A stretch of DNA of 64,000 nucleotides from Eledone cirrhosa (GCA_964016885.1 OZ024744.1:96782001-96846000), one strand, 5' to 3'; shown: positions 4,701-64,000, counted from the stretch's first letter. The notes: generated from the letters alone by a model not told the origin. Translations and numbers: made by a program.

Positions 4701-5639
4701 GTATCTGTAATTCAAAGAACCCGTCATATTCAAAGACACTGTCATAAGCTGAATTTTACCTGAGATTTACATTACGTTTCAGGGTGTGAAGAGGGGAATT
4801 CTCAAGAAATTGCACATTAGTTTCACGTGTGAGCTGTTCCATTCATTGAGCGAACGACCGGAATAGTCAACGTCGAAATCGGCAGAGATCCATTCTAAAT
4901 TTTCCTGAAGAATTTGCTCTATTTATAGTCGACCGTCGAAGTTATTAATTTCTATTTTCGCTTGATTTAATATCCGATAAGATATTTGATATTTTCCTAC
5001 TATGTAAGAATAATTTCTGTTCAAATGGTTTATTCTGTTTCTCAATAAAACAGTTTGCACCAATTCTTGTATTTGTTGTTCCAACAGTTGTTTTACTGTC
5101 TCATACATATGGGTTGAAGTCTGTGTTGTAATTCTTAGATATTTACCACTTTGCCACTTGTTTTTTATGTTTTATATGTGGGTTTTGTGAGTTCTTTCTT
5201 ATTCATTTGGATTTTAGTTTTTGTCGATATCATATTCCAGTATGTTAACATATGATAACATCAGCAACATGCAAATGTAGGTTAGTGCAAAAATTGGACC
5301 ATCTTAGTAATCTAAGATCTAAAACCAAGATCAAAGCAAATATTCCATCCAAAATCCTGTCATCTGTACGAAATGCAACTTGATGTACTAAATGCAGCTT
5401 GATAACTACCTTATATATATATATATATATATATATATATATATATATATATATATATATATATATATATATATATATATATATATATATATATAAGTAT
5501 TGAGTACTCTGGTGCGTTATGATCCACCTGGTTCCTTACCACAATTCCCTCGATATATATATATATATATATATATATATATATATATATATATATATAT
5601 ATATATATATATATATATATATATATATATATATATATA

Positions 5640-6034
5640 TAATAATAAATAAGAGAGACGGTTTTATTCGAACATCTTCATTTTATTACATAATTCCATT
5701 ACACGTATTTCAAAGACACCAGAGTAGTTATATAATAACCACCACGAAAAACCAGTAACATATCGATGGATAGGAAAATACATCTTACGCCATCTGATGA
5801 AAACATGTCAGGGGATACATATGACTGCTCTGGCATCTTTGAAATACGTATAATGGAATTATGTAATATAATGAAGATGTACGAATAAAACCGTCTCTCT
5901 TATTTATTATATTAAAACTCCGGTGGATATCTTACAGTGAAAATCCTACGGAATACAAATTGTTGAGTGCTTTAAGTCTATTTACAAAAAAGATCGGTAG
6001 ATTATTTGATCAACCAACTATCAACTGAATAATG
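5640..6034 (+). mobile_element. Penelope-like fold-back element with hammerhead ribozyme (HHR 5790-5856)
   Basis: Inverted arms at ~5640-5730 and ~5821-5910. Motif: ccat-CTGATGA-long stem II-GAAA-tacgta-TA-atgg, followed by AATAAA and a tail, flanked by (TA)n. Confidence 0.8.
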
Positions 6035-6212
6035 TATATATATATATATATATATTTATATAAAATTGAAAAAGTGGATAATACCATGGTCAAATAACAT
6101 GCATTTTAAACTTTGCTTCACGACATCTTCTACATAGGGATTACATTGAGTTCTTCATACGGCTTGGCCCTACCATTAATTGGTGGATTTATCTGTGTAA
6201 ATATATATATAT

Positions 6213-6458
6213 ATTTCGTTTCTGAATTTGTTTAGCAAGATTCTTTATCTGAAATCGTGTGTTGAAACCGATATTGTTATACTTTGGGAGGGTATATATA
6301 AACAACTATCTGGTTGTGGAACCAACCAACCAACCAGAAATTTATAAGTTTGTAGATTTGTAAATTTATAAATTTATAAATATATAATAAATTGAAGTGA
6401 AAGCAACTGGTGCGTGTGTTTCTTATTGGCAACATAACCCTCCCAAAGTATAACAATA
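6213..6458. mobile_element. Penelope-like element fragment with inverted ends attgttatactttgggaggg...ccctcccaaagtataacaat
   Basis: Same family occurs at 22120-22460, 26213-26325 and 59729-60220, and the last copy carries an HHR. Confidence 0.65.
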
Positions 6459-6806
6459 TATATACATATATATATGTTATTCTTGACTTTTTCAATTTTA
6501 TTACTCCAAGATAAACTTAGATAGGAATACAAGTGAAATCATAAACTCGTCATCTACGTAAACCTCTTGTTCAGTCAAACAACGCCGTACGCTAAAACTA
6601 TCCATAATAAGAAGTATTCACAACCTCTAACTGGATTAGCTATAACGATATTTTGTTATCCTTTATATATATTATATATATATATATATATATATATATA
6701 TATATATATATATATATATATAGTAATAATAATAAAATTGAAGACTAAAATCCAAAGAGGGCTCGATAAGGAAAATATATATCAAATATATAAGAACCGT
6801 AGAGCA

Positions 6807-7017
6807 AATATTTATTAAAATAACAGATTAAAGTTTAAGCAAAGAATCGCTGCTTTCACCCTTAACGGGATCTTCTGAAACTAACAAAGTCAATCTGTAA
6901 ACGCAGAACTGGATATTTCAAAAAACGTTGCAACCGGAGGAAGACAGGAAGACGATACTTTGGTTCGTGGTACAGCGATTCTTTGCTTAAACTTTAATCT
7001 GTTATTTTAATAAATAT
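6807..7017. repeat. Fold-back element with ~45-bp inverted arms
   Basis: atatttattaaaataacagattaaagtttaagcaaagaatcgctg and its reverse complement at 6973-7017. Relatives at 40261 and 52278. Confidence 0.8.
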
Positions 7018-7741
7018 ATATATATATATATATATATATATATATATGTATATGTATATGAGGAAAATGGTGTTTACAAAAATAATGACTTCACTGGTGG
7101 TTTGTATGTTTCAATTGCCCATTTTTGTTATTAGGTTATTGTTATTAGGCTTTGTAAGTATTTGTGAGTCCATGTTAACTTGAGTGGGTAACGCTCTCAC
7201 ATTCGGCGGCGATTGTGAAAGCGGTCCATTCACTCTAGTATTATGGTGATATGTATATATATATATACATATATTGTTATACTTGGGGAGGGTCATATTG
7301 TTGTAATATTGCCGGAAATAATAACAGAATCACACTCACTGTTTGGTTGGTTTTCGCTTCTGTATCTTTTATATCTCCATAGTTAATTTATTTGGCAATC
7401 AATGTTTATCATTGATTGTCCAGCAGTTAAAAATACAGATATAAATATATATATATAGTCTATCAAAGTTCTTTCGTTGCACATCTGCAACATCATCAAT
7501 GGTACTAATATGTTCCCTCCTATTGTATTGTATTGTATGTCTACACCATTGAATAAGTAACCTTTTAAGAACAAGGTTGAGATTAGCCAATAGTAAAAAT
7601 AGGAAGGGGCAATATAGATCATTGAGCTGGTAGTAGTAGATGACTATATTGCCCCTTCCTATTTTTACTATTGGTCAATCTCAACCTTGTTCTTAAATGG
7701 TTACTTATTCATACATGTTTTTATATTCTTCAATAAACAAT

Positions 7742-61057: not shown

Positions 61058-61455
61058 TAGTATAAAAACGAAAAATCAGTTATGCATCTGGACTCAGTTT
61101 ATAGTGTGTTACAATTGTTTCGCCGGCAGGTAGCTCGTGACATGATCACTGTATGAATCTGGCTGATTCAACGGCTGCAGGTTCCTTCGGACACGGGTAG
61201 TTTGTTCGGAGCAAATTTTCTCACGATCGAACTACCCGTGTCCGAAGGAACCTTCAGCCGTAGAATCAGCCAGATCCATAAAGTGATGATGGCTCGAGCT
61301 ACCTGCCGGCGAAACAATTGTAACACGCAATAAACTGAGTCCAGATGCATTACTGATTTTTCGTTTTTATACTATCCACACTCTACTCTGTATGAATATT
61401 GAGTGCTAATTTTGGCATACCGCGTATGGAAGCACCATAGCTACCATTATACACA
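61058..61455 (+). mobile_element. Penelope-like palindrome with variant-core HHRs (plus copy 61237-61327), sister of 54581
   Basis: cgtgt-CCGAAGGA-...-GAAA-caattg-TA-acacg, with a mirror copy at ~61107-61197. Confidence 0.75.
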
Positions 61456-61532
61456 AGTATATTTATATATATATATATATAAATTAATAAAATAATGAAT
61501 AAACAAAGAAACAGTTCCTTATATTAAAAAAT

Positions 61533-61669
61533 TCATCATTTACGATCGTTTCTAGGATATATATGTTAGTGTTGGTATGCATATCCTATAGATCTATGTA
61601 AAATTTTTACAAACTATCAGAGGGAATATACATACCTACACATATATATGCTGTCTTCAGAAATAATGA
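61533..61669 (-). ncRNA. Hammerhead ribozyme with ~100-nt stem II, homologue of 7742-7888
   Basis: Reverse complement reads tcattattt-CTGAAGA-...-GAAA-cgatcg-TA-aatgatga. Confidence 0.8.
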
Positions 61670-62687
61670 TATTTGTTTATTGAAAAAACCAACAAAGATT
61701 TAATACAATAGGTCTGTTTGGGAACAGGTTTTGAATTGACCAATAGAAAGATAGTAAAAGAACCTTAATTTATGGGTAGAGGAAGGTAGATTTCAGTTTT
61801 GGATGGAAGGAATATTATGAATGAAAGATTATTTTAGGGATGAGAATAGGTCATATGCTGACCTCAGAAATAATTATATTTGTTCATTGAATAAAACCAA
61901 CAAAGATTTAATATAGTAGGTCTGTTTGGGAACAGGTTTTGAATTAACCAATAGAAAGGTAATAATTGGCCAAATGGTAAAATAGTAGTAATTGAAATTT
62001 ATTTTGGGGTAGAAGAAGGCAGATTTCAGTTTTGAATGGAAGGAGTATGAAGAATGAAAAGTTTATTTTAGGGGTGAAAGTAGGTCAGGTCATTAAAAGG
62101 TAACACGAAAAGTTGCTGTTATAAAAGAATAATGCCAATGTAAATATCTAAGGAGACTAAACTTTTACGATAAAAGTGTTAGTGAAAAAAATATATATAT
62201 GGAATTTACATCTATGAAAAGAATATAAATTAATTTAATTGATGGGTATATTTATATTGATAAAATTATATTAATGCATATAGATATGATAAATAAGAGT
62301 TAGATGTAATTGAATAGTGCTGTTAAAGACGAGGGGAAATTAAATAGATATAAAAAGAATATATATATATATATATATATATATATATATATATATATAT
62401 ATATATATATATATATATATATATATATATATATATATATATATATATAATTATTGGGGGGAGGGGGTAAATTTATTAGTGAGAAATAATAAATATATAG
62501 AGATTTCAAGTAACATAGAATCATAACCTGAAATTAAAACATTATATATGTTTACTTAATGGTATCAATTTCAGGAAAAGATAGTTGTAAGAAGGAAAGT
62601 AAAATTATGTAGTTCATCAGTAGTAGAATATTAATTATAGGTTAACTAAATTAAAGATAGTTTTTATATTAATTTCTAAAATGTATA

Positions 62688-62958
62688 TTAATTAGGTTTA
62701 TAATATTTAAAGGTTTTTCTCAGTTTATGATTACACGATATTATTAATTCCTGTCGCTTATTTAATAGGATATCCTTAGATTTCATTATTTCAAAAAGTT
62801 CTTGGGAACATAATTTACATTCATATCTATTATTTTGATAAGGGGGTGGCCCTTTTGAGCACACTCCAGGTCAGGTCATAATCTATATTCCTCTTTCTAT
62901 AATTATTAATTATTTCAGCTAGAGATGTTGTATTAGCTATGCGGCATTTTTTGCTCCT
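62688..62958 (-). pseudogene. C-terminus of a Penelope-like element ORF (GIY-YIG endonuclease end), one frameshift
   Basis: Manual translation gives NTTSLAEIINNYRKRNIDYDLTWSVLKRATP(+1)YQNNRYECKLCSQELFEIMKSKDILLNKRQELIISCNHKLRKTFKYYKPN*. This fits the PLE C-terminal W.IL..A.PY..C.LC..E..LLNKR.E...C.H pattern. Confidence 0.75.
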
Positions 62959-64000
62959 ATATATATATATATATATATATATATATATATATATATATAT
63001 ATATAGAAGTGGTTACACAACAGTTAGTTCACCATACCGGACCTAACCACTTCTACCTAACTCGTCCCTTGGACTGAGTGCTCTACTACTACGGATATTA
63101 CCTTCCAGTGTTCCACCACTATATATATATATATATATGTATGTATATATATATATATATATATATATATATATACATATATATACATATATATATATAT
63201 ATATATATATATATATATATATATATATATATATATATATATATATATATATATATATATATATATATATATATACATATATACATACATATATATACAA
63301 GCAAATTATAAACGTAAACATGTAAGTATGTTTTTGAAACGGTGCGCGAGTTTGAAATTATAAATTATAAATTATAAGCTTTCACCGTCTGGATAACCAA
63401 AGATGTGGGTTCGACTCCCATGTACGGCAACACTCATCTTTTTCCATTTCTCCGAGGGTTATAAACCCCACTATCAGGCTAGAAATTTCTTTAGTCTAAA
63501 ATAGGAAGTTTATAATTTCTAATTTCTAATATATATATATGTATATAAATAAACACATATATATATATATATATATATATATATATATATATATATATAT
63601 ATATATATATGTATATAAATAAACACATATATATGCATATATATATGTGTGTGTGTGTGTATGTATAAGTTTACACATTTACACATTTATAAACGCATAG
63701 AAACAAACGCACACACATATATATATGGGAATGGTTTACTTGTGTGTATATATATATGTATACATACATGCATATATATGAGGGTTTCTTTTTTGATTTT
63801 CGGATAACTGATTGTTCAAGAAAACTGATTGTAATCACATACTGACATTTAGGATATAATATATATTCTAAATGTACATTTTAATGTACAAAAGTTAATG
63901 TACGTGTATTCCAAGTTGTAGGGCAGAGTTTTGCATCTAAATAGCTGAAGTTTTGCATGGGGACACATCCTTTCATAGGTTAGGCTCCTTTGTCAGAATA

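Follow-up and report, generated by a model that had tools for sequence, protein, structure and literature searches.

Penelope-like elements (PLEs) are the closest retroelement relatives of telomerase reverse transcriptase (RT). In the part of PMC8557442 considered here, PLE copies are described as lying between (TA)n tracts and as having a hammerhead motif and an inverted head, and the choice of the internal start and the formation of the tail and inverted end are named as the next task. For the Anolis element PAc of the Poseidon clade, the part of PMC11167929 considered reports that RT starts internally in vitro at two mapped sites bounding the tail, that both target strands are cut, that RNA 3' of the start sites is required and that a dimer is predicted; it names no start signal. 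Here we analyse a 64,000-nt stretch of the Eledone cirrhosa genome (GCA_964016885.1 OZ024744.1:96782001-96846000; the window), in which an original prediction had proposed a hairpin motif as a recognition or priming signal of the mobilising RT/endonuclease. Judged by its sequence, the motif corresponds to hairpin 1 (H1), the first of two bulged hairpins (H1 and H2) that lie in tandem in the 5' leader of full-length Hydra-clade PLEs, and we consider it likely, with a probability of about 0.7, that the pair marks the RT start on the read-through RNA of these elements; the proposed role is kept in this form as the best reading.

The elements of the window resemble the Hydra-clade PLEs, as far as these are covered by the same part of PMC8557442, in their open reading frame (ORF) motifs, C-terminal GIY-YIG domain, putative hammerhead in the pseudo-long terminal repeat (pLTR) and (TA)n targets, as well as in their partial tandems, inverted 5'-truncated heads and tail at one end. 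They differ in their tails of 67-138 nt, compared with 30-40 bp there, and in their tandem units of 3.5 and 6.9 kb, compared with less than 3 kb; hairpins, or a link between hairpins and termini, are not described in that part of the paper. PAc resembles the system proposed here in its two starts bounding the tail, its cutting of both strands and its need for RNA 3' of the starts, whereas it belongs to another clade, uses no target homology and has no conserved motif or covariation reported in the part of PMC11167929 considered. GAGY-RCT is not seen in the PAc template printed there; by eye, that template shows another bulged hairpin, unlike H1 and H2 in sequence, which begins about 3 nt 3' of the +111-118 start region. 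This hairpin is a lead that the hairpin rule may extend beyond the Hydra clade.

The best 150 of 232 Rfam matches in the window were below threshold and mostly came from microsatellite-driven microRNA models, and a search with the family A leader gave a single match (E 4.3) and listed no hammerhead. The hairpin pair is not described in the open full-text literature searched; subscription papers, Repbase notes and the PAc and bioRxiv supplements may bear on its novelty. The elements are best classified as new members of a known clade, and the two hairpins, together with their tie to both element ends, appear to be new.

In LINEs (long interspersed nuclear elements), their SINE (short interspersed nuclear element) partners and R2, a small RNA stem-loop at the 3' end is read in cis by the RT for target-primed reverse transcription. 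The pair described here would be similar in being a small conserved RNA stem-loop that serves as an RT start signal. Unlike those stem-loops, which lie 5' of the start and are copied, H1 and H2 would lie 3' of the start, would not be copied by their own priming event, occur as two in tandem and are part of the following unit's leader. In L1 twin priming both cut strands prime complementary DNA (cDNA), giving an inverted 5' segment; the second priming site is opportunistic there, whereas here both ends appear to be fixed by hairpins (H1 plus H2 in 118/118 cases, see below).

A tandem hairpin pair and its carriers

In tandem copies the order is ORF, 3' untranslated region, hammerhead-type core, H1, spacer, H2 and AUG; the tail of one unit passes over into the following unit's 5' leader, where a second copy of the motif is found. 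What had been taken for a 3'-terminal element is so only secondarily: it lies in the 5' leader of the following tandem unit and has a twin, H2, that is missing from truncated inserted copies. The hairpin consensus comprises RCTC, an inner stem, a 2-nt bulge on the 3' side (TT, TC or TA), GAGY and then RCT, around an inner loop of 5 nt to more than 100 nt. H1 and H2 are spaced by 67-138 nt, and the end of H2 precedes the AUG by 16-60 nt. The 37-65 nt that the original prediction gave between motif and (TA)n correspond to the H1-H2 spacer and are not a conserved distance; the fixed side is the 5' one, at 2-6 nt.

H2 was predicted from tail ends alone, by the rule that RCTC follows no more than 10 nt past the tail end. 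Places in the genome matching the predicted continuation numbered 323, 270 and 21 for the carrier families that we denote C, E and B, respectively, and in all three the loci shown run on into an H2 that is complete, followed by a Hydra ORF, neither of which was required by the search pattern. For family A the continuation was found at 351 places, its first bases having been seen beforehand. The H2 partner of family H is about 95 nt off and imperfect. Inserts in the H2 loop are tolerated (loci L349-L360, L291, L300 and L330-L348), with about 110 nt in C, 55-65 nt in J, K and L300, and 95 nt in H, where the insert includes an internal duplication. Three other interpretations of the motif were rejected: a protein-coding motif (the frame is not the same in all families, a stop directly follows the motif in family G, and both hairpins precede the AUG), a part of the hammerhead (the distance between core and motif varies), and a palindromic RNA dimer signal (by inspection, the AGCACT and AGTTCT variants are unable to self-pair).

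Elements of the window are flanked by (TA)n tracts, have hammerhead-type cores and carry at their start their own 3' part in inverted orientation, minus the motif-bearing tail. The carriers are most probably 5'-truncated copies of several Hydra-clade PLE families related by descent. Full-length copies tie families A, B, C, E, F, G and H, and additionally I, J and K, to Hydra ORFs; the first seven account for 14 of the 18 sites that the original prediction had ascribed to unrelated families. The family at 10867 (B2) is linked through a 3' end that follows a Hydra endonuclease. The family A ORF encodes 717 aa with RLRWR at 35, DKT at 117, YRDD at 348, a CxCX5C linker at 572, GIY..YIG at 591, CxxC at 670 and CxH at 698; it has no Neptune CX2-5CxxC linker and only one cysteine within the GIY-YIG core. 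Long copies of family H continue into an endonuclease with Hydra-clade features and likewise combine RT with a GIY-YIG domain at the C-terminus in one ORF, a Pfam search with the family H proteins giving no significant match. N-termini similar to that of family A (RWK-type motif, DKT) occur in B, C, E, F, G, H and I.

ORF proteins of different families share 36-55% identity (69% for J and K; only pairs sharing 100 or more aligned columns are counted), and the H1-H2 spacers have no pairwise similarity (0/45 pairs at p<0.02). The carriers are thus probably paralogous families of one clade, neither unrelated nor a single homologous family; the latter outcome is the one that the original prediction had named as its refutation. 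In a protein tree without a named Hydra reference, 37 ORFs form one group apart from the Poseidon-type and Neptune-type ORFs of the source genome. Hammerhead cores of the form CTGANGA..GAAA were found by pattern in families B, B2, B3, D, E, F, H and J, while family A has an altered 5' core and family G a long stem II. The copies are inserted into (TA)n, and partial tandems occur in L175, L393 and L394; the tandem unit measures 3.5 kb in family A and 6.9 kb in family C. Neptune- or Poseidon-type carriers were considered and rejected, the motif preceding the first (TA)n in 0/30 GIY-YIG loci and 0/20 long-ORF loci; it is not present in the leaders of L111, L082 and L093, which belong to these types. 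Assignment of family D to the Poseidon type was also dropped, the neighbouring Poseidon-type ORF in L095 being a nested junction.

The source genome contains, in loci L111, L393 and L330, intact, near-identical ORFs of both Poseidon type (900 aa, 3.1-kb tandems) and Hydra type (714-717 aa), which suggests recent PLE activity. It also contains ORF-less tandem arrays, with a 257-bp unit in family A (L375, L376) and a 195-bp unit in family F (L323-L327). The array unit comprises the hammerhead region, H1, spacer, H2 region and first ORF codons and is retrozyme-like. These arrays fit the non-LTR retrozymes, ORF-less tandem arrays derived from PLE pLTRs (bioRxiv 10.64898/2026.07.22.740005); unlike the preprint, whose text as considered here contains none of the words 'tail', 'hairpin' and 'stem', the present arrays keep H1, the spacer and the H2 region.

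Position, base pairing and element ends

The 3' half of the motif is present at 18/18 window sites listed in the original prediction, minus-strand positions there being the low end of the 9-mer. The window comes from a 3.0-Gb, microsatellite-rich animal genome. Matches to [TC][TCA]GAGT[AGT]C[TC] in the window fall 30-75 nt before a (TA)n tract of at least five units in 17/24 cases, against a background of 6.6%, for a pattern that was picked post hoc and copies that are non-independent. GAGTGCT is the top non-repeat 7-mer in this zone. The original prediction's distance range does not hold at 60389, which lies about 100 nt from a pure (TA)5. The positional enrichment suggested as a check was also above background out of sample (46/103 against 4.7%; 98 loci, the centres picked by the query being masked) and in 15 genome stretches of 10 kb chosen blind (13/38 against 3.5%, p=3e-10). 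In the latter, the strict TGAGT[AG]CT lies near (TA)n in 5/24 cases (p=0.001), and GAGC-type matches in 2/26, which is not significant.

Protein homologs numbered 945. A scan of contigs from marine metagenomes yielded 77 loci; in 45 of the 72 examined, the leader could be located. Two motif copies were found in 32/45 leaders, one copy in nine, three in one and none in three; across these loci the half-motif occurs 68 times in 8.2 kb of leader and 4 times in 84.8 kb of ORF. By eye, the hairpin is recognizable at the ends of the published consensus sequences Hydra-2_Amil, Hydra-2_Ajap and Hydra-1_Ajap (two copies before ATG), variant hairpins occur in Hydra-1_Crog and Hydra-1_Amil, and none is evident in Hydra-1_Obim (PMC8557442, in part); the hairpin-bearing sequences come from coral, sea cucumber and copepod. 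In the portion of the supplement of that paper considered, TT/TC/TA-GAGCACT has six matches, four at Hydra termini and two inside Naiad or Chlamys sequences. The cross-phylum range is based on the metagenome contigs and six published consensus sequences judged by eye. A metagenome subclade has TCTC/GAGA in both hairpins, and two more loci have other outer-stem variants (L275, L285, L244, L267).

In 46 non-redundant hairpins whose 5' strand was picked blind to pairing, the outer pair is G-C in 39, T-A in three and mismatched in four; in the source genome the outer pair of H1 is mostly A-T. Inner pairs of the same set are formed in 43/46, 32/46 and 27/33 cases, values matched in 0/10,000 shuffles, and a fourth inner pair (14/26) is not significant. 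Mapped on the protein tree, H1 has a Watson-Crick first inner pair in 37/37 sequences, with 8 changes in this pair, each two-sided (the 5' strand was selected via outer-pair complementarity, and source-genome family labels were hand-read). In a hand-picked 27-row H1 alignment, 98.7% of 157 cells are paired, with 25 double changes (0/500 shuffles). The hairpin structure is thus supported by covariation, not by folding energy, and the variable loops of 5 to more than 100 nt fit a folded single strand better than a duplex site with fixed spacing.

A census of 517 (TA)-ended copy ends from ten families placed 450 of them no more than 12 nt before a hairpin (205 at H1 and 245 at H2). By exact matching, in those combinations of family and hairpin for which copies were numerous enough, the last TA-compatible base lies 2-6 nt before the hairpin and closes a run of about 1-7 TA-compatible nt. 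The tail-less or inverted end precedes H1, and the tailed end precedes H2. Among 16 informative metagenome ends, 13 agree with this register, 12 of them as scored by script and L230 as judged by eye; in another 10 loci the copy stopped at the contig end. Inverted insertions, of which 75/118 come from loci not selected via a tail query, have one H1 end and one H2 end in 118/118 cases, with the tail at exactly one end. The original proposal of a conserved base-paired cis-element tied to element termini is supported by these data.

Hairpin copies and other features of the window

Family A is represented by H1 at 37097-37123 (+; element 37027-37168), by a copy at 46965-46991 (+), whose 5' strand reads GCTC, and by a tail fragment at 5496-5552 (+) with only the 3' half of H1 (5500-5508); its full-length copies are in L373 and L393. 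Family B has H1 at 38353-38382 (-) within an element at 38289-38804 with an inverted head and a hammerhead core at 38493 (-), and at 48160-48188 (-) within an inverted-head element at 48096-48540 (full-length copies in L383-L392), and a diverged B-like copy (77% identity) has a decayed inner stem at 60381-60408 (-). The inner stem has also decayed in the B2 copy at 10853-10875 (+; hammerhead core 10746), which has a related 3' end after a Hydra endonuclease in L122. B3 at 5917-5971 (+) has a 42-nt inner stem-loop in an element at about 5642-6034 with an inverted head and a core at 5794. Family C, with full-length copies in L349-L360, has H1 at 38843-38925 (+), where a 70-nt inner stem-loop has 9 paired positions, and a diverged tail at 6138-6194 (+) with the 3' half of H1 at 6146. 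A 5'-truncated Hydra-type copy at 61483-62934 (-) has an endonuclease C-terminus at 62934-62694 (tblastn E 1e-11) and a family C-like pLTR end (blastn) that stops before H1, as a tail-less end does.

H1 of family D lies at 15471-15513 (-) in an element at about 15417-15899 with an inverted head and hammerhead cores at 15618 (-) and 15862 (+). Family E has H1 at 36030-36057 (+; element 35764-36112; full-length copies in L361-L372) and a diverged copy at 36564-36600 (-). For family F we found H1 at 37330-37351 (+), in an inverted-head element at 37190-37391 with cores at 37250 (-) and 37264 (+), and at 48962-48983 (+; element 48868-49023), with full-length copies in L319 and L322. Family G occurs at 54903-54929 (+), where the inverted head of the element at 54576-54977 ends at the H1 junction, and at 61380-61407 (+; element 61054-61462), its full-length copy being in L183. 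H1 of family H, at 63060-63082 (+), has a 1-nt bulge and belongs to an inverted-head element at 63005-63119 (full-length copies in L163 and L175). Three copies of the GCTC/GAGC type had been overlooked by the original prediction: 6758-6805 (-; family I, element 6720-7017, full-length in L050), 50399-50422 (-; family K, full-length in L330 and L342) and 10056-10084 (+), from a family linked to no ORF.

The upstream ACTC, said to be usually present, was seen at 16/18 sites and is missing at 5500, where the copy begins within the hairpin, and at 6146. The ACTC/GAGT pairing itself is conserved; the particular inner pairings that the original prediction gives for 36030 and 15480 (-) are alternatives formed locally, outside the conserved register of ACTC, inner stem, 2-nt bulge and GAGT (36030-36057; 15513-15471). 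Further hammerhead-type cores at 22701, 24916 (-), 28848 (-) and 59967 belong to other PLE families; the core at 28848 (-) matches a Neptune-type 3' end (L050, L084), and that at 24916 (-) matches family J. The window also contains an abundant, partly tandem repeat of about 190 bp (1223-1421, 12482-12677, 27766-28188, 30817-31570, 35188-35379, 37875-38182, 41323-41693, 44258-44425), which we take to resemble a tRNA-type SINE, and a minisatellite at 56182-57673 with about 14 copies of 107-109-bp units. A search for tRNA genes in the window found none.

Proposed mechanism and rival explanations

The ends of copies fall a few bases before either hairpin, and the hairpins therefore likely tell the RT where copying starts. 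In the proposed mechanism, the GIY-YIG domain would cut both strands of (TA)n, each cut 3' end would anneal to UA just 5' of an RT-held hairpin, and internal target-primed reverse transcription would be positioned by RNA hairpins lying just 3' of the priming site. Because copying would run away from the hairpin, H2 would never be copied, and H1 would be copied only from the H2 start, as the tail. The two cDNAs would then join at their truncation points, giving the head-to-head structure; internal priming beside the hairpins would thus explain the PLE tail. A more specific version, which we offer tentatively as somewhat short of an even bet, is programmed twin priming, in which one (dimeric) RT-endonuclease holds two hairpins and primes both (TA)n strands, one from each. 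The pair would then be a portable 'start here' register accounting for tails, inverted heads and the need for tandems, with analogues of other sequence in other PLE clades.

Several observations weigh against an RT start signal of this kind. Families D, B3 and that of 10056 have no ORF link among the fetched loci, where one was looked for in D and B3. Family F, with 12 places, 8 of them sharing a common continuation, has no canonical H2, only a short GCAC/GTGC stem. In the end census, 97 ends without a following TA were set aside, 52 family C ends lie within the AT-rich loop of their own H2, 15 lie elsewhere, and 77 of the 245 H2 ends come from F and H, whose H2 start was set after seeing the ends; 3/16 informative metagenome ends misfit the register. 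Three outer pairs of the hand-picked H1 alignment are invariant and therefore uninformative on pairing. Single-sequence folding gave a P1 probability for H1 of at least 0.65 in five of ten families, 0.33-0.38 in three and at most 0.04 in two, and for H2 of at least 0.5 in 2/8 families, and RNAalifold predicts only a 4-bp outer stem. The ratio of G-U to A-C (6 vs 2) weakly favours the sense strand, RNA and single-stranded DNA not being separable. Among the sequencing runs searched, no RNA run contained the leader, a result that speaks neither for nor against the proposal. Finally, the Poseidon element studied in PMC11167929 primes without target homology, according to the part considered, compared with TA microhomology here.

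The main rival explanation is that the hairpins are read as DNA, in single-stranded or cruciform form, by the GIY-YIG endonuclease, which would cut a few bases 5' of them and trim the ends of integration intermediates. Parts of three sources lend weight to it: the Penelope endonuclease required the tail for recognition in earlier work (reported in PMC11167929), the tail was ascribed to endonuclease resolution (PMC8557442), and bacterial Ssn GIY-YIG enzymes cleave single-stranded DNA at a repeated sequence (PMC11893778); the covariation itself is unable to tell RNA from single-stranded DNA. However, H2 fixes the tailed end with the same spacing as H1 while missing from truncated insertions, and must therefore exert its effect on the template or on some long intermediate; moreover, in vitro mapping placed the RT starts on RNA where the tail is bounded (PMC11167929, in part). 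We consider the DNA-level signal unlikely, though it deserves to be taken seriously.

The location of the hairpins between hammerhead and AUG, with H2 only 16-60 nt before the latter, would also suit promoter or translation-control elements of the leader, nearby TA-rich sequence then setting the ends, and for Drosophila Penelope an internal promoter together with a downstream element has been described (PMC2377424, in part). Yet the distance to the AUG varies, whereas that to the element end stays at 2-6 nt; among the TA sites of the reference sequences, many others are unused as ends, and a duplex promoter motif would not retain compensatory pairs over loops of such different length. This makes leader control a distinctly improbable account of the ends. 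Some likeness by descent is expected, every ORF-linked carrier belonging to one clade, and passive shared ancestry, or chance near microsatellites, could in principle account for the motif. It is, however, retained at the 36-55% protein identity at which spacers have lost pairwise similarity (0/45) and is found in the consensus sequences from coral, sea cucumber and copepod (PMC8557442, in part); the compensatory changes, end register, blind-stretch enrichment and 118/118 inverted insertions likewise contradict this explanation, which we regard as very improbable.

A covarying hairpin pair of about 25 nt, with a register of 2-6 nt, provides exact targets for mutation. It also offers curators of Hydra elements a boundary rule and, if active in trans, may serve as a compact tag by which an RT is directed to insert into (TA)n.

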